Assembly (NCBI GenBank): GCA_016784305.1
Contig: JADHUY010000007.1
Coordinates: 2,340 to 26,339, forward strand
Reading direction: 5' to 3'
Source: Parcubacteria group bacterium
GTDB lineage: Bacteria; Patescibacteriota; Minisyncoccia; Phycocordibacterales; JABMNX01
DNA length: 24,000 nt
Numbering within the stretch: position 1 is the stretch's first letter; the number at the start of each line of letters is the position of its first letter. The position numbers were made by a program, and so were the translations under genes. The notes below the pieces were generated by a model. The model had not been told where the DNA came from, ran no database searches, and worked only from the letters and a program-made list of their open reading frames with translations. Positions 4,298 through 24,000 of this stretch are shown one piece after another.

Positions 4298-4338
4298 CAA
4301 CAAATCGCCAAGATGCACTGCATTTTGGCGATTTGTTG
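4298..4338 (-). terminator. hairpin terminator after the SIMPL gene
   Basis: A perfect 14-bp stem (caacaaatcgccaa / ttggcgatttgttg) lies 18 nt past the stop at 4357. On the minus strand it is followed by ACTTTTGG. Confidence 0.55.
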
Positions 4339-9255: not shown

Positions 9256-9288
9256 ATATTAATACAACTGCCTTCCTTTGTAAACTCT

Positions 9289-9322
9289 CCACCACTACTT
9301 CGATTAGTCGAAGTGGCGGTGG
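9289..9322. promoter_or_regulatory. imperfect inverted repeat upstream of the ArsR-like gene, flanked by 12-nt direct repeats (candidate operator)
   Basis: The stem ccaccactacttcga / tcgaagtggcggtgg has 13 Watson-Crick pairs, 1 GU and 1 mismatch. The exact 12-mer tcatatattaat occurs at 9252-9263 (overlapping the start codon) and at 9325-9336. Confidence 0.35.
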
Positions 9323-9377
9323 AATCATATATTAATTTCATATTCTACAAACCCAATATTCTATAGCTAAGTCCAAT

Positions 9378-9427
9378 AGCACAACACCAGAACCTTGCGA
9401 TATATCGCAAGGTTCTGGTGTTGTGCT
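9378..9427. repeat. 50-nt perfect palindrome between divergent genes
   Basis: agcacaacaccagaaccttgcgata | tatcgcaaggttctggtgttgtgct, with the 25-nt arms checked base by base. The core ccttgcgatatatcgcaagg is related to the hairpin at 17530-17549. Confidence 0.9.
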
Positions 9428-9477
9428 TATTAAGTTTCTTATGTCTACGTATAACAACTCTGTGATACGATTTCAGT

Positions 9478-10622: not shown

Positions 10623-10726
10623 ATATATATTTAAAATTAATCTGTTACCTCTACTCTAACCAGATATTGTTAAATAAGTTTTACGATTTGTAGTGTAACA
10701 CTTGTTTGGGTGCCTGACCTAGAATT

Positions 10727-10768
10727 GGCGTCAGGTCACTAACCTATTACTCCAGTATACTGGAGTAA
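10727..10768 (-). repeat. 18-nt box (ggcgtcaggtcactaacc) plus 22-nt perfect palindrome ttactccagta|tactggagtaa
   Basis: A near-identical module occurs at 17673-17721, with the box matching 17/18 and the same palindrome core. It lies downstream of tRNA-His on the minus strand. Confidence 0.85.
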
Positions 10769-10844
10769 CGCAATGTCATCTTAGTAGGGTGCACCCATCC
10801 GGGTACACTGCAGAAATCATAGTCGCTCTGCTCCTTATTTCTGG

Positions 10845-13101: not shown

Positions 13102-13737
13102 CTATTTCATAAACGCAAAGCTATGATGAAATATATATGTCGCTACAGTGTAAACTCCGTATGCTATAAAAGGCGCGGCAAATACATCTATTGAGTAATG
13201 AACGTGACTAAAAAGTGTAGACGCACCGAGGAAAATTGAAACTGCAATAAAAAAATACCTTAATTTTTCTTTCTTCCAAAAGATTAAAGCGAAAAGAAAA
13301 GGTATGGCGACGTGGCCCGAAAAGAAAAGGTCCCCTCCAAATGTAGTAAGGGAGCCGATTATAGGAGACGCATCAGGATATATACCAAGGTAGGTCATGT
13401 TTATAAATGCGGCTCGGGTAAGTATTAAAAGGGCAAGAGTTAGAAGGGCAAACGGCATATGCCTAGGAAAGAACCACAAAAGACCTAATACGGTGAAAAT
13501 AAGTATGTTTGAAACCCCAAGATGAACAATGGCGGCCCACTGTGAAAGTGGAATAATTTCAAGCAGAAAGTCTTTTACTGGAAGGCCTGCATTTAGCGTC
13601 GCGAAACGACCAGCATAATAATTTATTATGTATACGAGGACCAAAGAAAATATTCCTAACCCAGAGAAAAAAACATAAGAAGATTTTTCCATGAGAGTCT
13701 CATATTCTTTTGCTATACGATAAAACTTTTGCTTCAT
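13102..13737 (-). CDS. PAP2_C / sphingomyelin-synthase-like lipid phosphotransferase
   Basis: A polytopic protein with GGDLFFSGHVAIPF and HVHYSIDVFAAPFIAY. These correspond to the SMS-family D3 (GDxxxSGH) and D4 (HYxxDV) motifs. Confidence 0.65.
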   Translation of the reverse strand: MKQKFYRIAKEYETLMEKSSYVFFSGLGIFSLVLVYIINYYAGRFATLNAGLPVKDFLLEIIPLSQWAAIVHLGVSNILIFTVLGLLWFFPRHMPFALLTLALLILTRAAFINMTYLGIYPDASPIIGSLTTFGGDLFFSGHVAIPFLFALIFWKKEKLRYFFIAVSIFLGASTLFSHVHYSIDVFAAPFIAYGVYTVATYIFHHSFAFMK

Positions 13738-14588
13738 AGTTCTTGTAGTGCAGTTAAGCGCTCAAAGTTTGCTGAAAACAAAATATGTAATATTGTCCAT
13801 GCGAAAAAATACGTTTGGTCAAACATATACACAAGAACAGGTGCAGATGAGGTATATGTGTATAGAAAATATGCCCCTATTACTAAAGTATTAACAACCA
13901 AAATATTAAATACATATTTCTTTAGTTGCCCCTTACTGACCTCAATAGAACGGAAAGTATAGAAGATATACCATCTAGCGTAATGAAAAAGAACAATAAA
14001 ACCGAGCATGGCCTCAATACTTATCTTCACGTCCATAAGGTTAACCATCACTAAAACGGCACTACTAGTAAGAATTAACATCTCAGATGCATTTAGCTCC
14101 TTTCTCTGAATCGCCTTAACAATAAATGGAAGGCTCAGAAATAAAGCAAGCAGTGGCAAGAAAAATCCAAAATCAATTGCATATCCATCTTTAAATAGAA
14201 GTGCACTGTATAAAAGCACGAATCCCACCCCAACCAGTGATCTCTCTAGAGTGAATTTAGTATGCGCCACGTAAAGCTCATCAACAAAAAAATGAATAGC
14301 AAATATTATTCCTGCCATCACAAGAAACAGTGACTCTTTTTGCGGAGCAGACAATATAAGCGCCCACAGAAACCCTAATGCGGCCGCGTATAGTAGGACA
14401 AATTTAACCCCAATCTTTCCTGCTCTCCACTGGTATATATAAGAAATGATAAAATGCGCCTGACCAAGGACAATAAATAGAGTGATTATATTGTGTGGCG
14501 CAAGTATTACTACGGCAAGGAGTGACGAAAGTAGGGCCACCATAAAACCGGTTGAACTTGCCAAAGAAACGTTTTTTGTAAGAAACAT
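13734..14588 (-). CDS. polytopic membrane protein of unknown function with intramembrane His residues
   Basis: About 9 hydrophobic segments. His motifs are GQAHFII, AIHFFVDE, LFHYARWY and TILHILF. Its stop overlaps the start of the PAP2_C gene by 4 nt. Confidence 0.5.
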   Translation of the reverse strand: MFLTKNVSLASSTGFMVALLSSLLAVVILAPHNIITLFIVLGQAHFIISYIYQWRAGKIGVKFVLLYAAALGFLWALILSAPQKESLFLVMAGIIFAIHFFVDELYVAHTKFTLERSLVGVGFVLLYSALLFKDGYAIDFGFFLPLLALFLSLPFIVKAIQRKELNASEMLILTSSAVLVMVNLMDVKISIEAMLGFIVLFHYARWYIFYTFRSIEVSKGQLKKYVFNILVVNTLVIGAYFLYTYTSSAPVLVYMFDQTYFFAWTILHILFSANFERLTALQEL

Positions 14589-14688
14589 ATGGTGCTAAAT
14601 GTATGAAATAACCAACTCTACTTTGTTGGATATTTTAGCACGAACTTTTTCCTTTTGGTGTATGACATTAAAGATAGTTCGAGTGCGT

Positions 14689-14745
14689 TTCGCCATAGCG
14701 CACAAGCTTCCAGTAGCTAAGTGGGCACCTATGCGCTATGGCGAA
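14689..14745. repeat. 14-bp perfect stem with a 29-nt loop
   Basis: ttcgccatagcgca (14689-14702) pairs with tgcgctatggcgaa (14732-14745). The loop contains gtagctaagtggg, which resembles a tRNA D-arm. Confidence 0.8.
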
Positions 14746-14965
14746 TACGTATAGTAGTCAATGTTCAACTACAAAAAAATAGCACGGTCTGTACTGGTTG
14801 TCAAGAGGTTGTAAATCAAAAACGGCTATTGTGAGCCACTTAAAGTGAATTCAAAAAACTTCTTTTCAACCAAAAACCGCGTTTTCAATTTCGTTCCCAA
14901 AAACTGTACGATTTGGGAGCCGAGCGACGCAGAATGAGCTTCTATGCATTGATTTTTCACTCTTG

Positions 14966-15049
14966 TGCCCAGGACAGGAATTGCACCTGCACGTCCGTAA
15001 GGACACTAGCCCCTCAAGCTAGCGCGTCTACTAATTCCGCCACCTGGGC
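14966..15049 (-). tRNA. tRNA-Leu (anticodon GAG), class II long variable arm
   Basis: Manual fold:
- Acceptor GCCCAGG/CCTGGGC.
- Anticodon arm CTAGC-TTGAGGG-GCTAG.
- Variable arm GTCCTTACGGAC.
- T arm GCAGG-TGCAATT-CCTGT. The T-loop reads TGC instead of the usual TTC. Confidence 0.8.
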
Positions 15050-15099
15050 CTACCAGTATTTTACCCTAACACCAACTATGCCGAAGTTGGTGTGCGTGC

Positions 15100-15729
15100 T
15101 TACTCTTTCTTTCCTAAATCAGCCTCTGGCTGATCGGACGAACTAGCAGAGCTAGTTTTAGTCTCCTTCGCGTCCTCTTTAGGAGTTTCTTCGCTAACTG
15201 CAGGGTCAGCTTCTTCAACCTTTTCTTCCTCTACTACAACCTCTTCTTTTACTTCTTCTGGCTCTGCCTCTACTTCAGCCTCCTTAGCAGCCTCTTCGGC
15301 CTCCTTTAGAGCAGCCTTTGTTTTCTCTTCGGTGTCGCTCATTGTTTTAAGATCTACTATTTGCATCCTTCTCATAGCGCGACGAATCTCGCGGGTTACT
15401 TTCTCCCTTATGTGATAAAGCTTTGCACGGCGCACCTTTGCTCGCTTAACTATTTCAACTCTATCTATCATCGGAGAATAAAGAGGATAAATCTTCTCAA
15501 CACCAATGCCCCCAGTCATTCTTCGCACAGTAAATGTTCCTCCTGCTTCATTGCCATGCTTGCGAGCTAGTACCACACCCTCAAAAGCCTGAAGCCTTGT
15601 CTTTCCTTTTTCTTGGATTTTTTGCCAAACACGAACAGTATCCCCCGGCCTTATACCGATGTTTTTTCTGTCTTCTATATTTACTGGTGAAATTACTGCC
15701 TGTTCCATATAACGAGAGTACTCTAACAC
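15100..15729 (-). CDS. rplS: 50S ribosomal protein L19 with a ~90-aa acidic C-terminal extension
   Basis: [33 protein letters not shown]...FTVRR...[19 protein letters not shown] is the L19 core. The track start is GTG, and ATG at 15708 (MEQAV...) is the likelier start. Confidence 0.9.
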
Positions 15730-15734
15730 AGCCT

Positions 15735-16463
15735 TTAGACCTCGGCAATGTTAAGCCCTTTTAGAGCGTTTTTAAAATCCTCTGGAATTGGTGCCTCAAA
15801 CTCTCCAATCTCACCAGATAGAAGTACAATTGCCAACCTGTGCGCATGAAGAGCAAGGCGATCAAAGCCAAGTGCACACTCTCTTTTTGGTGCGTAAAGT
15901 TTGTCGCACACTACTGGATAATTTATTGCCTTAAAGTGCGCACGAATTTGGTGTGTTCTTCCTGTCTTAGGATAAACTGCCATATAGCTAAATCCATTGC
16001 TTCTATTTAAAACTTCGTATTCCGTTATCGCTTCCCTCATTACTCCTCGTGCCCCTCTTTGTGCTGAGCGAAGTCTAAAGTCAGTACTGCTTTTGCCAAT
16101 AGGTCTATCAATCACACCCTTATCTAACTTCACCTCACCATACACAAACGCTCTATATTCTTTCCTAGCTTCTCGCTCCTTGAATTGCTCCTTTAAATTA
16201 ATAAACGAATCTTGTGTTTTAGCAATTATTAAAACTCCGGACGTCTCCTTATCAATCCTGTGTACAATTCCAGGCCTATCCTCACTCTCTCCTATACCCT
16301 TAATGCTCGGATATTTAGAAAGTAGCCAGTCAACAAGTGTTTTCTCATCTCCTCTTCCATCAGGGTGCATCATCAAACCTGCCGGCTTATTTATTACCAG
16401 TACATCACTATCTTCATGAATTATTTCAATGTTATTTTCCATGCCTCCGCTCCCTTTCTCCAT
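15735..16463 (-). CDS. RluA-family pseudouridine synthase (no S4 domain)
   Basis: [12 protein letters not shown]...[18 protein letters not shown]...GRTHQIRAH are the catalytic motifs of the RluA/RluD family. Confidence 0.85.
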
Positions 16464-17103
16464 ACTCCTTTAATATTGAACTAAATTCTTCCCGAGTGAA
16501 AGCTGGCCAGTATGTATCTATGAAAAAAAGTTCCGAGTAAACGGACTGCCATGTAAGAAAGCCAGATAATCTGCGCTCTCCGCCAGTGCGTATTATTATG
16601 TCTGGATCAGGTAGAGGGCTAGTCCAAAGTTCTTTTGCTATATCCTCTTCCGTCACCTCCTTTCCTTTTTTTATCAACTCATTTGTTGCGTTAACTAGTT
16701 CAGCCCGTCCACCATATGACATAGCAATAGAGAGAGTGTGCTCTTCGTTCTCCTCGGTCTCTTTTTCTGTATCGTTCATTAAATCCTGCAAATTTTGTGG
16801 AAACCTCTCTCTATCTCCAGGGAAATATATTCTTATTCCTTCTCTTTTTATCTCTTCAAGCTCGTTCTTTATAAAAGTGTAAAGAAGGTCCAATAAGTAG
16901 GCAACTTCTTCCTTTGGTCTATTCCAATTTTCCGTTGAAAGAGCGTACACGGTTAAATGTGGAACCCCTGCGTCCTTATTCCAGCCTATAACTTCCTTTA
17001 GTTTTTTTGCGCCACGTCTATGACCCTCTAGCGTTGGTAGCCCCTGCTCTTTCGCCCACCTGCGATTGCCGTCCATTATTATTCCAATAGATTTTGGTGT
17101 CAT
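16432..17103 (-). CDS. uppS: undecaprenyl-diphosphate synthase (isoprenyl transferase)
   Basis: IIMDGNRRWAK, TVYALSTENWNRP and IRTGGERRLSGFLTWQSVYSELFF are canonical UppS motifs. Confidence 0.9.
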   Translation of the reverse strand: MTPKSIGIIMDGNRRWAKEQGLPTLEGHRRGAKKLKEVIGWNKDAGVPHLTVYALSTENWNRPKEEVAYLLDLLYTFIKNELEEIKREGIRIYFPGDRERFPQNLQDLMNDTEKETEENEEHTLSIAMSYGGRAELVNATNELIKKGKEVTEEDIAKELWTSPLPDPDIIIRTGGERRLSGFLTWQSVYSELFFIDTYWPAFTREEFSSILKEYGERERRHGK

Positions 17104-17106
17104 ATA

Positions 17107-17379
17107 TCAGTAGATAATTTTAAAACCCTCAAACTCCCTGCTAGGTTCCCTCCAGTCCACACTTACGCGTAAAACACGTGCCAGAAACGGTCCCTTATTT
17201 AAATACTCTATTAATGTCTCTAAATCTTCTTCTCTTCCTTGCGCCACAACCTCAACAGAACCGTCTTGGAGATTTTCAACTGTACCACGAAGGGCAAGTG
17301 TTCGTGCCTTCCTTTGTATAAAGTCACGAAACATCACCATTTGAACCTTGCCCGAGATTTTACACTTTATTTCTTGCAT
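17107..17379 (-). CDS. acyP: acylphosphatase
   Basis: A 90-aa protein. ISGKVQMVMFRDFIQRKARTLALRGTVENLQDGSVEVVAQG fits the acylphosphatase signature. Confidence 0.8.
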   Translation of the reverse strand: MQEIKCKISGKVQMVMFRDFIQRKARTLALRGTVENLQDGSVEVVAQGREEDLETLIEYLNKGPFLARVLRVSVDWREPSREFEGFKIIY

Positions 17380-17431
17380 TCAACTAGCATACATTGAAAT
17401 ACACAATATTTTCTATATACTGCTTGTTATT

Positions 17432-17505
17432 GGGCGATTAGCTCAGTTGGCTAGAGCAGTTGATTTACACTCATCAGGTCGGGGGTTCGAATCCCTCATC
17501 GCCCA
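17432..17505 (+). tRNA. tRNA-Val (anticodon TAC)
   Basis: Manual fold:
- Acceptor GGGCGAT/ATCGCCC.
- D arm GCTC-AGTTGGCTA-GAGC.
- Anticodon loop TTTACAC.
- T arm GGGGG-TTCGAAT-CCCTC. Confidence 0.85.
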
Positions 17506-17520
17506 CACTTTTAACTCCTT

Positions 17521-17558
17521 ACACTAAAACCTTACGATGTATCGTAAGGTTTTAGTGT
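17521..17558 (+). terminator. 17-bp perfect hairpin directly after tRNA-Val
   Basis: acactaaaaccttacga-tgta-tcgtaaggttttagtgt, followed by tttaaaaa. It belongs to the CGAT-core hairpin family (see 9378-9427 and 23339-23367). Confidence 0.5.
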
Positions 17559-17567
17559 TTTAAAAAT

Positions 17568-17593
17568 TAACTTTAGAGCTAGCTCTAAAGTTA
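17568..17593. repeat. 26-nt perfect palindrome taactttagagct|agctctaaagtta
   Basis: Arms checked base by base. A related copy lies at 23461-23492. Confidence 0.9.
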
Positions 17594-17618
17594 GTTCAGA
17601 AGTTTAAACGTAAATACT

Positions 17619-17662
17619 AATTTGTACGATACCTGCCTGCGCAGGCAGGTATCGTACAAATT
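17619..17662. repeat. 44-nt perfect palindrome aatttgtacgatacctgcctgc|gcaggcaggtatcgtacaaatt
   Basis: Arms checked base by base. The second copy at 23421-23464 differs only by a compensated A>G / T>C pair. Confidence 0.95.
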
Positions 17663-17672
17663 GTGAGAGATC

Positions 17673-17721
17673 GGCGTCAGCTCACTAACCACAATTACTC
17701 CAGTATACTGGAGTAATTGTG
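17673..17721 (-). repeat. 18-nt box (ggcgtcagctcactaacc) plus 32-nt perfect palindrome cacaattactccagta|tactggagtaattgtg
   Basis: Homologous to 10727-10768. Confidence 0.9.
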
Positions 17722-17758
17722 TAAGTGGCTCCTACCCAGACTCCTTCGCAATCTTTGT

Positions 17759-17794
17759 GGCGTCAGGTTTCTAACCTGCCTGCCGGCAGGCAGG
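17759..17794 (-). repeat. third copy of the box (ggcgtcaggtttctaacc) fused to a 20-nt perfect palindrome cctgcctgcc|ggcaggcagg
   Basis: The box matches the 10727 copy at 16/18 positions. The palindrome shares the cctgcctgc/gcaggcagg core with 17631-17650 and 23433-23452. Confidence 0.85.
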
Positions 17795-17851
17795 ACTCGC
17801 AGGCTCGTTAAGGACCTCCTGCCCGGGCAAGTTTACCTTGTGGTCACCCGT

Positions 17852-17887
17852 CACTAAGTATTTTTCATGAATTCAAAATACTAAGTG
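17852..17887. repeat. 13-bp hairpin (one mismatch) cactaagtatttt...aaaatactaagtg
   Basis: 12 of 13 positions pair, with the loop tcatgaattc. On the minus strand its 3' arm supplies a CTTAGTGAC box. Confidence 0.75.
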
Positions 17888-17948
17888 CGCTCGACCCCGG
17901 CTCGCCTTCGCGCTTCGCGCAATATGGCTCCGCCTGACACCAAGGCAC

Positions 17949-17970
17949 GGAAGCAAAGTAGTTTGCTTCC
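17949..17970. repeat. 9-bp hairpin ggaagcaaa-gtag-tttgcttcc
   Basis: Related to the longer hairpin at 23089-23136 (aggcacgRaagcaaagYagtttgcttYc). Confidence 0.8.
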
Positions 17971-17971
17971 T

Positions 17972-18010
17972 AAACAAAAAGGGCGCGCAAATTGCGCGCC
18001 CTTTTTGTTT
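17972..18010. terminator. bidirectional rho-independent terminator, 19-bp perfect GC-cored stem flanked by A/T runs
   Basis: aaacaaaaagggcgcgcaa-a-ttgcgcgccctttttgttt lies immediately 3' of tRNA-Arg(TCT) on the minus strand. Confidence 0.8.
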
Positions 18011-18014
18011 ACCT

Positions 18015-18089
18015 TGGTGTCCCCACGAGGAATCGAACCTCGATCTGCAGCTTAGAAGGCTGATGCTCTATCCGTTGAGCTATAGGGAC
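18015..18089 (-). tRNA. tRNA-Arg (anticodon TCT), CCA encoded
   Basis: Manual fold:
- Acceptor GTCCCTA/TGGGGAC.
- D arm GCTC-AACGGATA-GAGC.
- Anticodon loop CTTCTAA.
- T arm CGAGG-TTCGATT-CCTCG.
- 3' end A-CCA. Confidence 0.85.
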
Positions 18090-18129
18090 CACTAAAACGT
18101 AACAAATAAACCTAATATATTAAAGCCCT

Positions 18130-18729
18130 CTAAAGAAGTACCGCACTAAAAAGTGCAACGACTATTATTGCCACTGCAATAATCGTAACGATACGGGTGT
18201 GCTTCTTAAGTATAGAAATTGCTCTCTCGCCGTATAAATGCGTCAAGTAAGCCACCAAAAAGTATCTCAAACCACGCCCCACAAGTGAAGCCAATATAAA
18301 GATTACAAAATTAATTTTGAAAAACCCGCCAGCAAGCACAAACACCTTATATGGAATAGGTGTAAACGCTGCAATGAAAACAATGAGTGCTGAATTCCCA
18401 TTAAATTGCTCACCAACTTTTGCAAACTCGTCTGTCAGTCCGTAAAAATCTACAACCCTAGCTCCAACAACGTCATAAAAAGACGCCCCTATAACGTAGC
18501 CAAACACCGCGCCTAAGACCGCAAACACTGTAGTCAAAAAAGCGTAGTACGCCCACCTCTTTGAACTGACTAAAAGAATAGCAACAAGCAAAAGATCGGG
18601 CGGAATAAAAAGAAAAGAAGACTCCGTGAAAGAAAGGAAAGCCAGCCACCATTTAGCACCGGTGCCTTCCGCACGCTCCTTAAACCATTTAACACCACGC
18701 CTTTCTTCTTTATCAAATTCTTCAAGCAT
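18130..18729 (-). CDS. YqaA/DedA-superfamily membrane protein
   Basis: FTESSFLFIPPDLLLVA and the overall 4-5 TM layout match COG1238/YqaA-type proteins. Confidence 0.65.
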   Translation of the reverse strand: MLEEFDKEERRGVKWFKERAEGTGAKWWLAFLSFTESSFLFIPPDLLLVAILLVSSKRWAYYAFLTTVFAVLGAVFGYVIGASFYDVVGARVVDFYGLTDEFAKVGEQFNGNSALIVFIAAFTPIPYKVFVLAGGFFKINFVIFILASLVGRGLRYFLVAYLTHLYGERAISILKKHTRIVTIIAVAIIVVALFSAVLL

Positions 18730-19067
18730 TATTTTATTTTGCTTCCAGCCGGAACAGGAGCATGCGGTATTAGAAGTGCAAAGTCGCCCTCTTCAGTACT
18801 TACCGCCATAATCATTCCATTACTTTCCTCTCCCTTTATAGTCCTAGTCTTTAGATTCACAACAAACGGATAAAGCTTGCCCACTATATCGTCCTCTGAT
18901 ACATATTCAGCAATACCTGAAACTATTTGCCTTGCCTCATCTCCAAAGTCTACAGAGAGTTTTAGTAATTTATCTGTTTCAGGAATACGCTCTGCACTTA
19001 ATACTTTCCCCATGCGCACATCTAGCTTCTGAAAATCCTCATAGCTAATTTCTTCTTTTGTTTCCAT
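18729..19067 (-). CDS. tRNA-binding domain protein (CsaA/Trbp111-like)
   Basis: FQKLDVRMGKVLSAERIPETDKLLKLSVDFGDEARQIVSGIAEYV...NLKTRTIKGEESNGMIMA is the OB-fold tRNA-binding domain pattern. Confidence 0.8.
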   Translation of the reverse strand: METKEEISYEDFQKLDVRMGKVLSAERIPETDKLLKLSVDFGDEARQIVSGIAEYVSEDDIVGKLYPFVVNLKTRTIKGEESNGMIMAVSTEEGDFALLIPHAPVPAGSKIK

Positions 19068-19080
19068 CTTTATTTATTTG

Positions 19081-19467
19081 TTATTTATTATTATTGAGCT
19101 TCTCAAGATATCTCTGAAGTATCAAAGCTGCTGCTACGTCATCCGTCTTTATACCCTTTGGTGCATCACGACGTGATTCAACTGATGTTAGATATTCGGG
19201 CTCAAGGTGAACCTCTACATCATTTTCTTCAAGCCCCTTTTTAAAATCTTCAACGTCAGCCATAACCCTGTTATCCACCCCCTTGAAGTCTTTGGACTCA
19301 CCTATAACAACCCTATCCACTTTCTCATCTTTTACAATATTAAGCACCTCATCTAGTGCCCCAGGTGAGCTTTCTATTATCTTGTGAGGGAAAGCCAAGA
19401 CTCCTGAGTCATCAGAAAGGGCCAGTCCAATCCTCTTAGTACCATAATCAATTCCCATAAGTTTCAT
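19081..19467 (-). CDS. ruvX: Holliday-junction-resolvase-like / pre-16S rRNA nuclease YqgF
   Basis: MKLMGIDYGTKRIGLALSD...VVIGESKD...SVESRR matches the YqgF family. Confidence 0.85.
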   Translation of the reverse strand: MKLMGIDYGTKRIGLALSDDSGVLAFPHKIIESSPGALDEVLNIVKDEKVDRVVIGESKDFKGVDNRVMADVEDFKKGLEENDVEVHLEPEYLTSVESRRDAPKGIKTDDVAAALILQRYLEKLNNNK

Positions 19468-19521
19468 AGGGCAATTGTAACAGGGTTGGCAAATTAGCGA
19501 AAAAATTGTAACAATACTCTC

Positions 19522-19604
19522 GGAGGGGTGCGGAGAATGGTATTCCAGCGGTCTTGAAAACCGTCGCGCGCAAGCGCTTGCAGGTTCGAGTCCTGTCCCC
19601 TCCG
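19522..19604 (+). tRNA. tRNA-Ser (anticodon TGA), class II
   Basis: Manual fold:
- Acceptor GGAGGGG/CCCCTCC.
- Anticodon arm GCGGT-CTTGAAA-ACCGT.
- Variable stem GCGC-GCAA-GCGC.
- T arm GCAGG-TTCGAGT-CCTGT.
- Discriminator G. Confidence 0.8.
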
Positions 19605-19609
19605 CAATT

Positions 19610-19644
19610 ACGAAAACAGGTGGCTTTATGCCACCTGTTTTCGT
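19610..19644 (+). terminator. 15-bp perfect hairpin after tRNA-Ser
   Basis: The hairpin is acgaaaacaggtggc-tttat-gccacctgttttcgt. There is no long T-run after it, so its terminator function is assumed from position only. Confidence 0.5.
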
Positions 19645-19672
19645 ACACTAAGAAAAAGTAACCAAACACCGC

Positions 19673-19909
19673 ATGCATAAAGACATAAAACTAGGAAAGT
19701 ACAAACACTACAAAGGAAAGACCTGCGAAGTAATCGGCACTGCAAACCATAGTGAGCCATTAGAACAACTGGTAGTTTATATTGACCTATCTGATTCTAA
19801 AGAGTTTGGTAAAAACGCTATGTGGGTTAGACCTCTTGAAATATTTAAAGAAGAAATAGAAGTAAATGGAGAAATGGTTCCGCGTTTTAAGTATATTACT
19901 TCAAAATAA
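19673..19909 (+). CDS. DUF1653 domain protein
   Basis: KYKHYKGKTCEVIGTANHSEPLEQLVVYIDL...MWVRPLEIF fits the DUF1653 consensus as I recall it. Confidence 0.65.
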   Translation: MHKDIKLGKYKHYKGKTCEVIGTANHSEPLEQLVVYIDLSDSKEFGKNAMWVRPLEIFKEEIEVNGEMVPRFKYITSK

Positions 19910-19958
19910 CCACACCACTCTCACATAAACTTATACACTACGTGCTACCATTTAGTTA

Positions 19959-20366
19959 ATGAACCGCGGATTTTCAATAATGGAGCTCTTAGTAGTGGTA
20001 GCAATTATAGCAATCCTCTCAAGTGGACTTATTGTAATGATTGGTAGTTCGCAACTAAAAGCTCGCGACACCGGAAGACTTGATCAGGTTAAAGAAATAC
20101 AAAAAGCTCTTTCACTGTACCAAATAGAAGTCGGTAAATTCCCCGTCCACCCAACTACTATTATCATAACAGGAGAAGACTCATTTTCCCTTGCGCTCGA
20201 GGCAAGGAATGTAATACCTGAAGTACCACCAGACCCAAATCATCCAAACAGTGTATATACTTATCAATCAGACAATAGTGGTGGCGACTACACACTTACA
20301 TTTTGTTTAGATACAGACAGTATATTTGGATACAACCAAGGCTGCGGCAACACAATAAAACCTTAA
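19959..20366 (+). CDS. type IV pilin / pseudopilin-like protein with prepilin N-terminal cleavage-methylation motif
   Basis: MNRG|FSIMELLVVVAIIAILSS has a Gly at -1, Glu at +5 and a hydrophobic helix. Confidence 0.8.
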   Translation: MNRGFSIMELLVVVAIIAILSSGLIVMIGSSQLKARDTGRLDQVKEIQKALSLYQIEVGKFPVHPTTIIITGEDSFSLALEARNVIPEVPPDPNHPNSVYTYQSDNSGGDYTLTFCLDTDSIFGYNQGCGNTIKP

Positions 20367-20375
20367 ACAATAAAT

Positions 20376-20831
20376 ATGGAACCTATACGTTGGCAAGGAT
20401 ATGAATATGAATTTAGCGAGAAGAGCGCTGACTGGTTTTGGGCGCTTGGCATTATTGCTGTATCAAGTTCAATCACAGCGATAATATTTAAAAATTTACT
20501 ATTTGCTCTTTTAATATTGATAGGTGCTCTCACCCTTGCTCTATTTGCGGCACGCAGGCCGCATTTAACACACTTTGAAGTTAACAAGAATGGCGTGGCG
20601 GTAGATCGGATACTCTATCCATACAAAACACTTGAAGCATTCACGATAGTACACGATGACGAAGATCCTAAAGTCATCATAAGTTCAGAGAAATTCCTAA
20701 TGCCCTACATTGTCATATCTCTAATTGACGTAGATATTGAAGCTCTTCAAACAATACTAAGAGAGCATCTCCCGGAAGAGGAAATAGCTGAACCAATCTC
20801 ACATAAGATATTAGAATTTTTTGGTTTCTAA
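20376..20831 (+). CDS. hypothetical two-TM membrane protein
   Basis: An ORF 9 nt after the pilin gene with two adjacent hydrophobic helices (WFWALGIIAVSSSITAIIF, LLFALLILIGALTLALFA). I recognise no family. Confidence 0.5.
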   Translation: MEPIRWQGYEYEFSEKSADWFWALGIIAVSSSITAIIFKNLLFALLILIGALTLALFAARRPHLTHFEVNKNGVAVDRILYPYKTLEAFTIVHDDEDPKVIISSEKFLMPYIVISLIDVDIEALQTILREHLPEEEIAEPISHKILEFFGF

Positions 20832-22046
20832 CTAAAACTCTTCAAAGCTAGGAGTTAATGTTACGGTCGTATTTTCTGTCCTTATATTTCTTGTAGTTTG
20901 GCACGTTAGTGTATATGTACTTTCTTCTACGATTGGTGCAGTTACTTGAGAACCATCTTTCCCTGTGGCACTAAAGTTTGGGCCTGTTACTGAACAAGAA
21001 ATAATGTCATCATCCCCAAGCGTTGACCACGTGATTAATGATGTGTCTCCTGGTTTAACCTTATCTGGGTCAGCCGAAATATCTAGAACCGGCCAGAATA
21101 CACTTACATCAACTGACGCCTGTCCTCCGTTTGAACACACTACAATAAACTGTGTATCTATTGTTGGAGAAACCTGAACAGACCCAGAGGTAGCACCTCC
21201 TGTTGAGAAATTAGAGCCAGAGCTAGATGTTGAGTTTGAACAAGACCAAGTAAGTGTCGCTGACTGGCCTAGGATTACCTCAGGTTTATTAGTTGAAAAA
21301 GATGGTGGCGTCGGCACACACCCAGATTCGGCTGGAGTACTAGCCGAGCATGAGCCATTACATTGAATGGTTCCACTGTTTGTCTGACCGCACGAGTTGG
21401 CCGCTGACTGACAACTGTTGCCATATCCGCTCGGGTTAGAAGGAGTGCTGGCAGAACATGAGCCATTACATTGGATAGCCCCGGCTGAAGTCTGTCCACA
21501 AGCATTCGCAGATGAGTAGCAAGTGTTGCCGTAGCCACTAGGATTAGATGGAGTGCTTGCGGAGCATGAACCATTACATTGGATTGTTCCGCTATTTCTT
21601 TGACCGCATGAATTATATGAAGAGTAGCAAGTATTACCGTAACCGCTAGGATTAGACGGAGTGCTTGCCGAACATGATCCATTACATTGAATGGTTCCGC
21701 TGTTTCTTTGACCGCATGAGTTACTACTTGAATAGCAGGTGTTGCCATATCCGCTTGGATTTGGCGGAGCACTGCTTACAGAGCAGTTGCCACTACAATC
21801 AATCGTGCCACTTGTTCTTTGGCTACATGAGTTGTATGAAGAATAACAGGTTTGCCCAACATTGCCTTCGCACCCACCAAAAGCACCGGCAGCATCAGCA
21901 TCAGCACCACTTCCATCCCCAGGTCCACTATCACCATCAGCAAAAACAGTCCCGACTGCTAAAAATGAAAAACTTAGGATCGCAACCGCAACGAACACAA
22001 TAAATATTAGAAATTTAAAGTGGCTATATGTATTCTTTATTATCAT
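20832..22046 (-). CDS. secreted cysteine-rich tandem-repeat surface protein with two C-terminal Ig-like/beta-sandwich-type domains
   Basis: An N-terminal signal/anchor is followed by five 36-aa units (PSNPSGYGNTCYSSxNSCGQRNSGTIQCNGSCSAST, spacing C-x6-C-x9-C-x3-C). The C-terminal ~160 aa is paralogous to the CDS at 23515-24000. Confidence 0.75.
   Translation of the reverse strand: MIIKNTYSHFKFLIFIVFVAVAILSFSFLAVGTVFADGDSGPGDGSGADADAAGAFGGCEGNVGQTCYSSYNSCSQRTSGTIDCSGNCSVSSAPPNPSGYGNTCYSSSNSCGQRNSGTIQCNGSCSASTPSNPSGYGNTCYSSYNSCGQRNSGTIQCNGSCSASTPSNPSGYGNTCYSSANACGQTSAGAIQCNGSCSASTPSNPSGYGNSCQSAANSCGQTNSGTIQCNGSCSASTPAESGCVPTPPSFSTNKPEVILGQSATLTWSCSNSTSSSGSNFSTGGATSGSVQVSPTIDTQFIVVCSNGGQASVDVSVFWPVLDISADPDKVKPGDTSLITWSTLGDDDIISCSVTGPNFSATGKDGSQVTAPIVEESTYTLTCQTTRNIRTENTTVTLTPSFEEF
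21333..21872 (-). repeat. 108-bp in-frame tandem repeat array (about 5 units) inside the Cys-rich gene
   Basis: The marker ccattacatt recurs at 21355, 21463, 21571 and 21679, an exact 108-nt period. A more diverged unit follows. Confidence 0.9.
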
Positions 22047-22135
22047 TCTCCTTATTTAATTAAAACTTAAATACCACAAACTAATAGTACCCGATTTATA
22101 CAAATATTGTACGAAACTACAAATATTTTGTGAAT

Positions 22136-22170
22136 AAAAAAATACACCGCCCAGGGGGTTCCCCAGGCGG
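22136..22170 (-). terminator. rho-independent terminator of the lipoprotein gene
   Basis: A GC hairpin (ccgcc..gggg-gtt-cccc..ggcgg) at 22147-22170 is followed on the minus strand by GTGTATTTTTTTA (T7). Confidence 0.6.
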
Positions 22171-22184
22171 CGCGACAAATCCCT

Positions 22185-22700
22185 TCAATCTTGCTCAAGC
22201 GATGTTACTTTCGCTCCACCTGTGAACTTTTTAAAGACTGTGTCCGCCGCAAACTTATTGTCGGCAAACCTGTGGATTTCAACCCACATTCTCCCGCCCT
22301 CCAAAAGCCTCATTGTTAAAAAGCGGCCATTTTTAGCGATTAGCAACTCACCAGAGGCAATACCTTCAACTTCAGCATAAACGCACCTGTCGACAAGCAT
22401 CCTCGCGTGACAATAACGAACCTTCGCCATATTGGGGGCGTCCGGCATTGGAGTGATTAACAGCAAACCACACCCTCTGCCACTGGAATTAGCAAACACT
22501 CCACGCCATTGACCAAACAATGCATTACCTTTGGGCGCATCCTCCACCTCTTTCAACCATCCCTTCTTCACACTGACTTCGCATTCTGAAAAATAAATGC
22601 GATCGGTGGCGGGGGTAAACATAGCTACCTTTGTATCAGCACAGCCAGCAAGCGATAGGAATAGAGCGGCCGCGCCAAGTAGTAATCTGTAAAACGACAT
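22185..22700 (-). CDS. lipoprotein of unknown function (lipobox LSLAGC), compositionally atypical
   Basis: A signal peptide (MSFYRLLLGAAALFLSLAG|C), a near-consensus promoter and an AAGAGGGG RBS upstream. Three 60-nt samples gave 48-57% G+C, against about 40-42% in neighbouring CDS. Confidence 0.7.
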   Translation of the reverse strand: MSFYRLLLGAAALFLSLAGCADTKVAMFTPATDRIYFSECEVSVKKGWLKEVEDAPKGNALFGQWRGVFANSSGRGCGLLLITPMPDAPNMAKVRYCHARMLVDRCVYAEVEGIASGELLIAKNGRFLTMRLLEGGRMWVEIHRFADNKFAADTVFKKFTGGAKVTSLEQD

Positions 22701-22759
22701 GGGGAATCCCCTCTTGCTATTTCAACGCCACAGTTGGCATTGAACTCTAATCTAAACAA

Positions 22760-22789
22760 ACTATACCCACAAAAGCCTTGTTTTGTCAA
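22760..22789 (-). promoter_or_regulatory. sigma70-type promoter for the lipoprotein gene
   Basis: The minus strand reads TTGACA (22789-22784), an 18-nt spacer, then TATAGT (22765-22760), about 60 nt upstream of the ATG at 22700. Confidence 0.55.
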
Positions 22790-22848
22790 GGTTTTAAGCG
22801 GTTTATCGTTGCTTATTACGAGCAAAAAGTGCTACATTCATTAACATC

Positions 22849-22920
22849 GCCCTCGTAGTTCAAGGGATAGAATACAAGTTTGCGGAACTTGCGATCCAGG
22901 TTCGAATCCTGGCGAGGGCA
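22849..22920 (+). tRNA. tRNA-Arg (anticodon GCG)
   Basis: Manual fold:
- Acceptor GCCCTCG/CGAGGGC.
- D arm GTTC-AAGGGATA-GAAT.
- Anticodon arm CAAGT-TTGCGGA-ACTTG.
- T arm CCAGG-TTCGAAT-CCTGG.
- Discriminator A. Confidence 0.8.
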
Positions 22921-22923
22921 CAT
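22908..22923 (+). repeat. 16-nt direct repeat, copy 1 (tRNA-Arg-GCG 3' end plus 3 nt)
   Basis: cctggcgagggcacat is identical to 23080-23095. Confidence 0.9.
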
Positions 22924-22948
22924 GAGTGAGGCACGAGCGAATGTGCCC
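22916..22948 (+). repeat. 8-bp hairpin that uses the tRNA-Arg(GCG) 3' end as its left arm
   Basis: The left arm is gggcacat (22916-22923). The loop is gagtgaggcacgagcga. The right arm is atgtgccc (22941-22948). Confidence 0.7.
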
Positions 22949-22953
22949 GAGGA

Positions 22954-22975
22954 GAAGTGTGCTTGCGCACACTTC
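22954..22975. repeat. 9-bp perfect hairpin gaagtgtgc-ttgc-gcacacttc
   Basis: Checked base by base. Confidence 0.85.
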
Positions 22976-23079
22976 GTCAGGATTCGAACGCCGGAACATG
23001 TCCCGAGGTCTACGAGGGACAGTGAGGTGTGTCCCGCGGTACTTAGCGAGTTTACGAGCTTAGTGACCGTCAGGACGAA

Positions 23080-23095
23080 CCTGGCGAGGGCACAT
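23080..23095 (+). repeat. 16-nt direct repeat, copy 2, preceded by a degenerate T-arm
   Basis: cctggcgagggcacat is preceded by gtcaggacgaa, compared with ccaggttcgaat in the real tRNA. The segment 23063-23093 folds as about 12 bp of stacked helices (GTGACC+GTCAGG / CCTGGC+GGGCAC). Confidence 0.85.
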
Positions 23096-23136
23096 AGGCA
23101 CGAAAGCAAAGCAGTTTGCTTTCGTGCCTATGTGCC
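23089..23136. repeat. 22-bp perfect hairpin ggcacataggcacgaaagcaaa-gcag-tttgctttcgtgcctatgtgcc
   Basis: Checked base by base. It is homologous to 17946-17970, with G>A / C>T changes that keep the pairing. Confidence 0.9.
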
Positions 23137-23148
23137 AAACGGAATGAT

Positions 23149-23177
23149 GTTTCTTTCTCTTTCCTAAAGAAAGAAAC
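23149..23177. repeat. 10-bp hairpin gtttctttct-ctttcctaa-agaaagaaac
   Basis: Checked base by base. Confidence 0.8.
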
Positions 23178-23209
23178 GAATGAGTTCGGGGAGGGAGTTC
23201 TTGGGAACG

Positions 23210-23233
23210 TAGTGACCTAGAAACTCGACCCCA
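23210..23233 (+). repeat. direct repeat copy 1: tagtgacctagaaactcgacccca
   Basis: The first 15 nt are identical to 23302-23316, and 21 of 24 nt match overall. It carries the TAGTGACC box. Confidence 0.85.
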
Positions 23234-23301
23234 CAATTGCACCCATCACTAACTCGCTATCGCTGCTAAGCGATGTGTGGTCGAATCCTATTTATAAAAC
23301 A

Positions 23302-23325
23302 TAGTGACCTAGAAACCCAACTCCA
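23302..23325 (+). repeat. direct repeat copy 2: tagtgacctagaaacccaactcca
   Basis: See 23210-23233. The copies are spaced 92 nt apart. Confidence 0.85.
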
Positions 23326-23338
23326 AATCTTAAAACAT

Positions 23339-23367
23339 AAAACCATACGATATATCATAGTGGTTTT
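23339..23367. repeat. imperfect hairpin aaaaccatacgatatatcatagtggtttt (CGAT-core family)
   Basis: Resembles 17526-17553 (aaaaccttacgatgtatcgtaaggtttt) but has a bulge and a mismatch. Confidence 0.6.
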
Positions 23368-23420
23368 GTGTTTCAATAATTAACTCTTGAGTTGATTCAA
23401 TAGTAACAGACAAACACCTA

Positions 23421-23464
23421 AATTTGTGCGATACCTGCCTGCGCAGGCAGGTATCGCACAAATT
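23421..23464. repeat. 44-nt perfect palindrome aatttgtgcgatacctgcctgc|gcaggcaggtatcgcacaaatt
   Basis: The second copy of 17619-17662. It probably also serves as the terminator of the minus-strand gene that ends at 23515. Confidence 0.95.
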
Positions 23465-23492
23465 AACTCCAGAGCTAGCTCTAGAGTTAATT
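23461..23492. repeat. 32-nt palindrome (one mismatch) aattaactccagagct|agctctagagttaatt
   Basis: Related to 17568-17593. It overlaps the previous palindrome by the 4 nt aatt. Confidence 0.85.
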
Positions 23493-23514
23493 CTGTACAC
23501 TTCAAAAATTAAAT

Positions 23515-24000
23515 TTAAAACTCCTCAAACGCAGGCACTAGCTTCACAGTTGCGTCCACAGACAAAGTATTCTCTGTTGTAGGACACGTAAGTGTGTACG
23601 TACTCTCCTCGGTTATGGGTGCTGTCACCTTTGAGCCACTCTTTCCACTTGCAAAGAAATTAGGACCAGAGACTGAACAAGAAAGAATGTCATCATCCCC
23701 TAGTGTTGACCAGGTGATTAATGAAACATTCTCCGCTTTCACTCTCGTTGGATTAGCTGAAATATTTAATACTGGCCAAAATACATTTACGTTAACAAAG
23801 TTCTGTCCCCCATTGGAGCAAATCACCGTAAATTGCGTACTTATAACTGGAGAAACTACTACAGAGCCAGAAGGCGCACCACCAGTTGAGAAGTTCACAC
23901 CCGAACTTGATGTTGAGTCTACACAAGCAAATGTAAGAGTTGCGGAGTTCCCTCCGATTATAGATATGTTGCCTCCAGGTCCACTACCACCATTTCCAGA
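23515..24000 (-). CDS. paralog of the Cys-rich surface protein, C-terminal part (CDS continues past the right edge)
   Basis: The frame stays open to position 24000. It reads SGNGGSGPGGNISIIGGNSATLTFACVDSTSSSGVNFSTGG... and aligns with VILGQSATLTWSCSNSTSSSGSNFSTGG... of the 20832-22046 protein. Both proteins end in FEEF. The M at 23898 in the ORF track is an internal GTG. Confidence 0.8.
   Translation of the reverse strand, partial: SGNGGSGPGGNISIIGGNSATLTFACVDSTSSSGVNFSTGGAPSGSVVVSPVISTQFTVICSNGGQNFVNVNVFWPVLNISANPTRVKAENVSLITWSTLGDDDILSCSVSGPNFFASGKSGSKVTAPITEESTYTLTCPTTENTLSVDATVKLVPAFEEF

Follow-up and report, generated by a model that had tools for sequence, protein, structure and literature searches.

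The window analyzed here, a 24,000-nucleotide (nt) stretch of a Parcubacteria group contig (JADHUY010000007.1, positions 2,340–26,339 of the forward strand), holds a gene-free, hairpin-rich tract (positions 17506–18014) between convergent transfer RNA (tRNA) genes, tRNA-Val(tac) and tRNA-Arg(tct). This tract is neither a single large noncoding RNA (ncRNA) nor a collection of random hairpins; it is a composite, in which a palindrome block lies beside tRNA-Val and an array of insertion units lies on the tRNA-Arg(tct) strand. On balance, we consider it probable that the minus-strand array consists of partly decayed, tandem, miniature and protein-less insertions at the T-loop of the tRNA gene that carry a structured module, and that the palindromes are terminators.

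An earlier note on this stretch had described the tract as gene-free, rich in hairpins and, in its right half, far richer in GC than the genome, and these descriptions hold. No open reading frame (ORF) of ≥60 amino acids (aa) appears in the ORF listing for 17380–18129, and GC content in the right half is 0.48–0.535 vs. 0.38–0.47 in flanking 200-nt windows (16500–19000). All nine hairpins that had been reported are present (17521–17558, 17565–17596, 17619–17662 with 22-nt perfect arms, 17690–17721, 17775–17794, 17789–17823, 17852–17887, 17949–17970, and 17971–18011), five of them as perfect or near-perfect palindromes. Folding energies of the 508 nt are −228.5 kcal/mol for the plus strand (vs. 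about −133 for dinucleotide shuffles; z = −15.5) and −239.6 kcal/mol for the minus strand (vs. about −145; z = −14.6). Misassembly of repeats, which the note had allowed for, is ruled out: an independent assembly from a different sample (ERZ24794644 NODE_16073; L071 among the related loci, which are given L numbers here) shows zero differences from the window over the whole tract interval, and the tract is therefore not a repeat artifact. Over 14107–20379, this contig differs from the window by 46 substitutions clustered in 18415–18935, one at 19988, and is otherwise identical; the cluster, which lies in the VTT-domain and tRNA-binding genes, looks like a short recombination patch that may have been imported.

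A covarying two-domain fold behind tRNA genes

The units form a family whose fold covaries. Its representative in the tract, the canonical unit (17838–17936, minus strand), is a ~100-nt two-domain fold that matches the model used for our scans (R1) at 94.8 bits (E = 1e-22), and it was placed in an alignment of 26 distinct canonical units (A3). In the A3 consensus, domain 1 comprises helix P1 (G-N-C with G-N-C), a conserved GGA/GA internal loop, helix P2, and a variable hairpin, and domain 2 comprises P3 (GGUCG with UGACC, including one invariant G·U pair), P4, a conserved U·U mismatch, a long stem that covaries in its distal portion (UUUU/AAAA vs. AAUU/AAUU), and a GA-rich terminal loop. Across the alignment 98.2% of cells pair, and two-sided changes occur in 9 of 26 pairs, e.g., the middle P1 pair is GC in 11 units, CG in 9, AU in 3, and UA in 2. 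Covariation strongly supports the fold of the 17838–17936 family, with a score of 0.294 as compared with 0.075 for shuffles (reached by 0 of 500) and ≤0.065 for slid partners. Divergent subfamilies retain P1 and P2 with further pair types (AAC/GUU, AUC/GAU, GUG/CAC), and all 26 units fold better in sense than in antisense, with an average advantage of 7 kcal/mol (p = 3e-8).

This family appears in no RNA catalog that we searched. At gathering score, only tRNAs passed in Rfam 15 scans of the window and 12 related loci, and at permissive settings the tract and a clean unit returned only chance hairpin matches far below threshold, so that the tract, which might have proved to hold known families only, has no Rfam family at any threshold. 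The families left unmatched include ROOL, GOLLD, tmRNA (transfer-messenger RNA), SRP, 6S, Y RNA/YrlA, and small ribozymes. The proposed precedent of ROOL and GOLLD falls away, with no match at E up to 10 and a structured module that does not span the tract. The suggestion of structured ncRNAs stands for one ~100-nt module (17838–17936, minus strand) and its degenerate relatives and fails as a description of the whole tract. A tmRNA or tRNA-like gene across the tract was rejected as well, as ARAGORN gives just six tRNAs in the window, and kink-turn, box C/D, T-box, SRP, Y-RNA, hammerhead, and group II domain V motifs, compared by eye, do not fit the conserved loops.

Flanking proteins put the window in Patescibacteria (Paceibacteria/Kaiserbacteria group). 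Species-representative genomes gave no close relatives by flanking protein, and relatives were obtained by searching with proteins and looking up contigs. The order RuvX, tRNA-binding protein, VTT protein, tRNA-Arg ... tRNA-Val, acylphosphatase, and UppS is retained in marine relatives with 74% identity in the VTT-domain protein, with a gap of 735–775 bp; on their tRNA-Arg strand the first ~220 nt past the tRNA are far more conserved than the remainder. The canonical unit is better preserved than its surroundings, scoring 95 bits in relatives at 74% identity. Following the same tRNA-Arg(tct), a similarly built element that is visible by eye and that R1 scores weakly (16 bits) is found in a relative at 58% identity (L020), and a relative at 53% (L019) has a unit from another subfamily (29.9 bits) together with a displaced tRNA copy.

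Beyond these relatives, the linkage of units to tRNA 3′ flanks is strict. An exact 20-mer of the conserved core occurs at 18 loci among 185,579 species genomes of all phyla, 17 of them in Patescibacteria; a 19-mer from the other arm gave 22 metagenome loci, and the exact motif stands behind tRNA genes in 39 further Patescibacteria contigs. Wherever exact-motif loci could be checked, the core lies 41–240 nt downstream of a same-strand tRNA or tmRNA, and the genes concerned are Ala, Arg (two anticodons), Asp, Gln, Glu, Gly, Ile, Lys, Tyr, Val (two anticodons), and tmRNA. Hits of R1 in Patescibacteria contigs agree: 50 of 51 sit 32–536 nt downstream of a same-strand tRNA or tmRNA (26/26 canonical units, 24/25 divergent hits), at genes of at least 13 tRNA types plus tmRNA, with Met as an addition to the exact-motif list. 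These loci share a common plan, i.e., tRNA, trailer, terminator-like hairpin, inverted trailer copy (sometimes reaching into the acceptor stem or T-arm), and core, followed by a displaced tRNA 3′ copy or by a trailer-like ACAAAG and the next unit. The sole model hit with no detectable upstream tRNA (L023, 4194–4291) is flanked by an inverted T-arm-like segment and followed by an AATTTCC... copy, and the gene upstream of it may be an atypical or decayed tRNA or tmRNA.

Displaced tRNA ends and turnover between strains

The boundaries of the units are copies of tRNA 3′ ends that begin in the T-loop, and this junction is constant. We scanned for displaced copies over 6 kb downstream in L002–L038 and the window, and over 700 nt downstream for all 74 tRNAs of the loci. 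A displaced 3′ copy follows 20 of the 74, at +73 to +505 nt; the match to the tRNA almost always starts inside the T-loop, most commonly at C56/R57, and extends to the discriminator plus 0–6 nt. The duplicated segment is the 18–25-nt tRNA 3′ end, the cases that start in the T-loop span 13 tRNA types and many genomes, and the inserts measure ~120–290 bp. Within these search ranges, neither displaced copies more than ~0.5 kb from their own tRNA nor kilobase-scale elements bounded by tRNA repeats were found. In the window, displaced copies lie behind tRNA-His (10707–10726) and tRNA-Arg(gcg) (23080–23095), and tRNA-Arg(tct) has only an eroded one (17665–17672).

Elements integrated in tRNA genes are defined by a regenerated target and a displaced fragment (PMC4383910; tycheposon arrays), and the combination of a regenerated tRNA, a displaced fragment, and a constant T-loop junction is the signature of site-specific insertion into tRNA genes. 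Of the features used for Islander-type elements, the intact regenerated tRNA, the direct displaced 3′ fragment, and the fixed crossover sublocation (the T-loop) are all present here; an integrase of the element's own is not, as the units have no ORF and their neighbors no integrase. In one locus (L022), the region ~+190 to +440 past tRNA-Gln contains another, degenerate tRNA-Gln that copies the D-arm and anticodon arm and is interrupted in the T-arm; a second displaced 3′ copy comes after it, an arrangement that indicates successive insertions.

Sites are empty or filled, and strains differ. Specifically, in a 55% relative (L018, 7574–7767), tRNA-Arg(tct) and tRNA-Val are convergent and only 44 nt apart, with one shared bidirectional hairpin; this locus is an empty site. 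It also bears out the remark in the earlier note that one terminator per tRNA would be enough, as it has exactly that state. In a sibling strain (L001; ERZ24794645 NODE_85927, compared over window positions 17698–23763), 17698–23095 is ~99.9% identical (five mismatches over 5.4 kb) and the sequence diverges abruptly right after the displaced tRNA-Arg(gcg) copy (23080–23095). Past the breakpoint, the sibling carries a different family member with a perfect 21–23-nt antisense copy of the tRNA 3′ half, and the gene beyond is only ~85% identical. L001 shows recombination at this site, in a comparison that does not separate site-specific from homologous exchange; its contig ends inside a palindrome, at ~17698. 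These two loci support the recombination hotspot that the note had listed among its candidate explanations.

The interval between the VTT and acylphosphatase genes also differs in L002–L007, the closest relatives. Here, tRNA-Val lies on the strand of tRNA-Arg (i.e., it is inverted in the window) and is preceded by a 25-nt partial 5′ self-copy and a hairpin, and a perfect direct repeat of ~85 nt opens with the final 19 nt of tRNA-Arg.

Anatomy of the array and its counterparts in the window

Read along the minus strand, the array starts from its anchor, tRNA-Arg(tct) (18015–18089, minus strand; CCA encoded; ARAGORN and Rfam), and runs through a bidirectional terminator, a small hairpin (GCAAACUNCUUUGC), an inverted trailer, the canonical unit, a fossil tRNA end with trailer, a half unit with an inserted palindrome, and a subfamily-3 unit to an eroded tRNA remnant (GATCTCTC), beyond which stand three palindromes, the last of which probably terminates tRNA-Val. 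The terminator (17971–18011; 20-nt arms with A-tract and T-tract; hairpin and terminator calls) has the G+C-rich hairpin and T-run of an intrinsic terminator on both strands, and it is an insertion relative to L002–L007, the closest relatives, from which it is missing. The small conserved hairpin (17949–17971, minus strand; AGGAAGCAAACUACUUUGCUUCC) has a CUNC-type loop and a counterpart in relatives, GCAAACUGCUUUGC, a module that stands between terminator and unit in L002, L020, L029, L030, L037, L049, and L054. The loops of terminator hairpins in these genomes repeatedly read CUGC(G) (many loci; in the window, 17949–17971 and 17619–17662). Next, CCTTGGTGTC (17936–17945, minus strand) is an inverted copy of the tRNA-Arg 3′ end and trailer that pairs with 18012–18021; relatives change both sides of this pair, from GACACCAAGG/CCTTGGTGTC to GACGCAAAGG/CCTTTGCGTC, in compensatory fashion, and a second compensatory change takes GCGCGAAGCGCG to CCCGCTTTGGCGGG.

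At the far end of the canonical unit, GACCACAAGGTAAAC (17831–17845, minus strand) is a degenerate direct copy of the tRNA-Arg 3′ end and trailer (GACACCAAGGTAAAC) that overlaps the 3′ strand of helix P3. The partial unit behind it (17759–17830, minus strand) has the second domain only, ends in TTAGAAACCTGACGCC, contains the inserted 20-nt palindrome 17775–17794, and is homologous to complete units at L019:8328–8420 and L002:11061–11147. The degenerate subfamily-3 unit (17673–17757, minus strand) consists of GGGTAGGAGCCACTTAC, the hairpin 17690–17721, and then GTTAGTGAGCTGACGCC, and was aligned with L019, L002, L040, and the unit behind tRNA-His (alignment A5); direct alignment places it in one subfamily with the tRNA-His unit, both with the end GTTAGTGAGCTGACRCC abutting the 3′ part of the tRNA T-loop. 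The remnant at 17665–17672 (minus strand), the eroded, displaced T-loop/T-stem 3′ part of tRNA-Arg(tct), reads GATCTCTC where the tRNA has GATTCCTCG, and was identified against intact displaced copies in relatives L002 and L040. The array holds two to three tandem units of the uncatalogued family, and no hairpin with a T-run of the intrinsic terminator type was found in the unit bodies (17665–17945). R1 makes four hits in the window, each on the strand of the adjacent tRNA-Arg: beside the canonical unit, these are 23136–23236 (plus strand; 21.9 bits, E = 5e-4), 22988–23080 (plus strand; 16.7 bits, E = 0.01), and a weak one at 17669–17777 (minus strand; 12.7 bits, E = 0.1).

At the left border of the tract, tRNA-Val(tac) (17432–17506, plus strand; ARAGORN; Rfam tRNA, 68.4 bits) lies downstream of a promoter-like TTGAAA/TATACT (17394–17421) and is followed by three palindromes, which we call H1–H3. 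H1 (17521–17558; 18-nt arms, then TTTTAAAAA) has TTTT directly after it and a homologous copy at 23338–23366, and it is probably the bidirectional terminator of tRNA-Val. H2 (17565–17596; 16-nt arms with one G-T position) has copies at 23460–23493 (88%) and ~23378–23400 (degenerate) and is terminator-like on the minus strand; its 17568–17593 segment has the hairpin and T-run of an intrinsic terminator. H3 (17619–17662), a perfect 44-nt palindrome, has a 95% identical copy at 23421–23464 in which a compensatory A/T to G/C change leaves the palindrome perfect. The three-palindrome block as a whole (17525–17662) aligns to 23338–23464 at 75% identity, and the duplicated block spans 23338–23493.

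Units follow three of the six tRNA genes of the window (His, Arg-tct, and Arg-gcg). The remainder of the stretch had been called tightly packed, a statement that needs qualification, as gaps of 220–376 bp follow tRNA-His and tRNA-Leu and a second hairpin-rich tract of 593 bp (22922–23514) follows tRNA-Arg(gcg). This second tract contains only short, apparently spurious overlapping ORFs (60–97 aa), has repeat modules in common with the 17506–18014 tract, and holds at least two divergent units. Its sister array (22976–23095, plus strand; R1, 16.7 bits, E = 0.01) is made up of an inverted T-arm copy (22976–22997), a divergent unit (22988–23080), and the displaced tRNA 3′ copy CCTGGCGAGGGCACAT (23080–23095); the second divergent unit (23136–23236, plus strand; R1, 21.9 bits) is replaced by a different one in the sibling strain L001. 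A palindrome with 22-nt arms (23089–23136) and a 28-nt direct repeat (23206–23233/23298–23325) lie in the same tract. The subfamily-3 unit behind tRNA-His (10707–10800, minus strand) ends in GTTAGTGACCTGACGCC, followed by the displaced tRNA-His 3′ end AATTCTAGGTCAGGCACCCA (10707–10726). Shared segments tie these places together: 17670–17716 recurs at 10724–10768, after tRNA-His, 17938–17968 recurs at 23091–23121, and the motif GGCGTCAG(G/C)T(C/T)(A/T)CTAACC occurs three times in the window.

Elsewhere, a divergent intergenic region (9256–9477) contains a 50-nt perfect palindrome (9378–9427), a CTCCACCA-type tRNA/tmRNA-like 3′ end with hairpin and inverted copy (9287–9326), and a weak R1 match (9374–9464, minus strand; 9.5 bits), and it may be a unit remnant that adjoins no tRNA. 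A 404-aa ORF (20832–22046, minus strand), for which no Pfam match was found, contains four tandem 108-nt repeats (66–76% identical; 21333–21807), and its product would be a repeat protein of 36-aa units. Among the related loci, a Patescibacteria contig carries a group I intron (L029, 6682–6941, minus strand; Rfam, 69.6 bits), and L002 carries, at 13668–15174, a LAGLIDADG-domain ORF between the L19 gene and tRNA-Leu and a truncated serine-recombinase zinc-ribbon ORF overlapping the tRNA-Leu 3′ end. Neither of these two ORFs has a counterpart in the window, and both are unrelated to the units.

Origin of the units, rival explanations, and significance

Under the insertion reading, each unit would most likely enter a tRNA gene through site-specific recombination that crosses over in the T-loop, at 56/57. 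The incoming unit would supply a replacement tRNA 3′ end with its trailer, a terminator hairpin lengthened by an inverted trailer copy, and the ~100-nt two-domain module; the old tRNA 3′ end would be displaced downstream as a copy, and repeated insertion, erosion, and recombination would have formed the array. The inverted copies would represent outward growth of the terminator palindrome, because long perfect palindromes also occur off tRNA flanks (4298–4338 and 9378–9427 in the window) and because most units complement the trailer only, just 8 of 45 having ≥8 nt of mature tRNA. The module most likely folds on the tRNA strand and, if it is made at all, would be made as a read-through 3′ extension of the tRNA transcript; it would probably serve the element's own maintenance or spread, with the recombinase supplied in trans. 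The type of recombinase, the transcription of the module, and the role of its RNA are inferences.

Several observations weigh against this reading. Double-stranded circles of 120–290 bp are poor substrates for tyrosine integrases, and no integrase was found among the neighbors of the 17 loci (6 downstream ORFs from 6 loci scanned). Most canonical units are followed by ...GGGTGACC-ACAAAG, which looks like a fossil tRNA end and trailer now part of P3, and not by a clean displaced tRNA copy. A T-run hairpin usually separates tRNA and unit and should thus limit read-through, and no internal promoter-like site was found. With the invariant pair set aside, G·U cells (15) and A·C cells (12) are uninformative on strand, and the strand call therefore rests mainly on the folding energies. 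Finally, the breakpoint in the sibling strain would also fit homologous recombination anchored on the conserved tRNA copy, as the gene beyond it is only ~85% identical.

Could the units instead be domesticated small RNAs that serve the host, i.e., dicistronic tRNA–ncRNA precursors freed by tRNA-processing enzymes, with the tRNA-end copies as by-products of recombination? We consider this possible though unlikely. The units always share the strand of the tRNA and sit at very short distances from it, no terminator separates tRNA-Arg from the unit in the closest relatives, the core sequence is strongly conserved across lineages whose proteins are ~50–60% identical, and 15 of the 17 Patescibacteria records (15 genomes) have one exact-motif hit, with two in each of two genomes. 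In E. coli, the 3′ external transcribed spacer RNAs from tRNA operons set a precedent, as do plant dicistronic tRNA–small nucleolar RNA genes, processed by RNase Z (work named in the reference list of PMC12045711). Yet, the distribution is sporadic (17 Patescibacteria loci of 185,579 species genomes) and the tRNA concerned differs between genomes, the units are tandem, decayed, and of several subfamilies, the 56/57 junction in the T-loop is hard to obtain other than by site-specific insertion, and the relative L018 has an empty site. Quite unlikely, in our estimate, is that the units are self-contained, mobile RNA-like elements, specific to Patescibacteria and homing to the T-loops of tRNA and tmRNA genes, in which the ~100-nt module would be expressed from the tRNA promoter and active as a recombination cofactor or, through its tRNA-antisense flank, as a template or guide. 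We assign very little probability to an RNA-guided or RNA-templated element in which the stretch on the 5′ side of the core, being antisense to the 3′ end of the tRNA, would direct or prime insertion. In 20 of 26 units (z below −2) the 5′ flank does pair with the tail and trailer of the tRNA before it, cognate complementarity exceeds non-cognate (p = 2e-7), the inverted T-arm, where present, abuts P1 with a fixed 1-nt spacer (in L001 as a perfect 21–23-nt antisense copy), and the inserts are RNA-sized. However, a guide complementary to mature tRNA was rejected as weak, with ≥8 nt of perfect complementarity in only 8 of 45 units and trailer plus last acceptor bases in the others; the complementarity takes in the trailer, which mature tRNA lacks, a lengthened terminator palindrome is a simpler account of the inverted copies, and no reverse transcriptase or RNA-guided recombinase was found nearby. 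Nor is there an adjacent gene of the IS110-type bridge RNA or OMEGA kind, and HEARO and related Rfam models are unmatched.

That the units are deletion scars of larger integrated elements, their conserved sequence being fused attP arms (protein-binding DNA and not RNA), is in our view also improbable, though slightly less so than RNA guidance. Regenerated tRNAs and displaced fragments are classical island marks (PMC4383910; tycheposon preprint). The size of the units is likewise close to that of an attP of the lambda type. Against this, the sequence of P1, P2, the variable hairpin, and the distal part of the long stem is free and their pairing is kept, which points to selection on a fold and not on binding sites; the long inverted repeat is spaced differently from unit to unit, and in L002–L038 and the window no displaced copy lies more than ~0.5 kb out within 6 kb. 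Integrase fragments were not found, and the motif is absent from 2.9 million viral contigs (IMG/VR) and from phage and plasmid collections, where viral-contig scans gave only chance or coding matches or none and blastn gave none, so that an attP of phage or plasmid origin was rejected. As for ordinary terminators, palindromes of the repetitive extragenic palindromic (REP) type, or chance hairpins with nothing further to them, H1–H3 and 17971–18011 do behave as bidirectional terminators and other gene ends also have long palindromes. This account is adequate for 17521–17662 and 17971–18011 and refuted for 17665–17971, where it fails on the 94.8-bit covarying family match, the conservation across the sampled Patescibacteria contigs, the linkage to tRNA genes, and the displaced tRNA ends; for the tract as a whole we hold it the least credible.

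Other known systems resemble the units in part. The idea of a nest of miniature palindromic mobile elements survives as a tandem array of tiny inserts, without the constant terminal inverted repeats of miniature inverted-repeat transposable elements; assignment to the latter was rejected, as the flanking inverted segments are derived from tRNA or trailer and differ by site, and the 5′ and 3′ flanks pair significantly in just 6 of 27 units, which also led us to reject a universal closing helix. Integron attC sites have the form R″-L″...L′-R′ (RYYYAAC ... GTTRRRY) with extrahelical bases, one per cassette, and by inspection against this consensus the unit ends (GTGACC, CTGACRCC, GTCAGG) have no core/inverse-core pair. 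REP sequences and bacterial interspersed mosaic elements share the reuse of palindromic modules in mosaic order, as in the duplicated H1–H3 block, which recurs once more, within the window; REPs, however, are short, scattered at many gene ends, and RAYT-dependent, whereas the units are tRNA-specific, oriented, ~100 nt long, and built of two domains. ROOL and GOLLD are alike in frequent tRNA adjacency and differ as single RNAs of 500–800 nt with Rfam models of their own. In dicistronic tRNA–ncRNA genes (the plant genes and bacterial spacer RNAs named above), a small structured RNA also lies directly 3′ of a same-strand tRNA, whose promoter and processing it could borrow, and these RNAs are not known to be flanked by displaced tRNA ends or to pass from one tRNA gene to another.

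The closest parallels are with elements integrated at tRNA genes. Islands and prophages at tRNA and tmRNA genes (Islander) share the regenerated tRNA, the direct displaced 3′ fragment, the T-loop crossover, tmRNA as a target, and the tandem stacking of successive insertions, but are kilobases long, whereas the units measure 120–290 bp, have no integrase or ORF, and have a covarying RNA-like fold for a body. Tycheposons of Prochlorococcus likewise integrate repeatedly at the same tRNA, pushing older elements outwards and leaving partial-tRNA footprints, in compact genomes and a marine setting; they encode tyrosine recombinases and cargo, with no ~100-nt structured module described, whereas the units are protein-less. 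Cis-mobilizable elements (CIMEs) have recombination sites flanking a recombinase-less body and are presumed to be mobilized in trans, and they are kilobase-sized deletion derivatives with identifiable parents. The units are alike in their recombinase-less body, which here is a conserved fold, and, unlike for CIMEs, we know of no parent element. The neighbors of the window's own tract are housekeeping genes, and different units have unrelated neighboring genes. Footprints of integration at tRNA genes are already known as a kind, and full-text literature searches found no published description of this element; what is new is the protein-less ~150-bp unit, with its covarying two-domain fold and its spread across the phylum.

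The genomes of Patescibacteria are among the smallest and densest of bacteria, yet units occur at three of the six tRNA genes of this window. If the insertion reading is true, the units would constitute a new covarying RNA family, ready for Rfam, and would show that targeting of tRNA genes can be sustained by ~150-bp elements with no gene of their own. The 3′ flanks of tRNA genes would be the main sites of recombination and turnover in these genomes. Annotators could then account for "empty" intergenic stretches and for broken contigs in candidate phyla radiation assemblies, and metatranscriptomes could be searched for a defined RNA. Were the mobile RNA-like reading true instead, the units would be a bacterial counterpart of tRNA-linked elements that resemble short interspersed nuclear elements or retrozymes.

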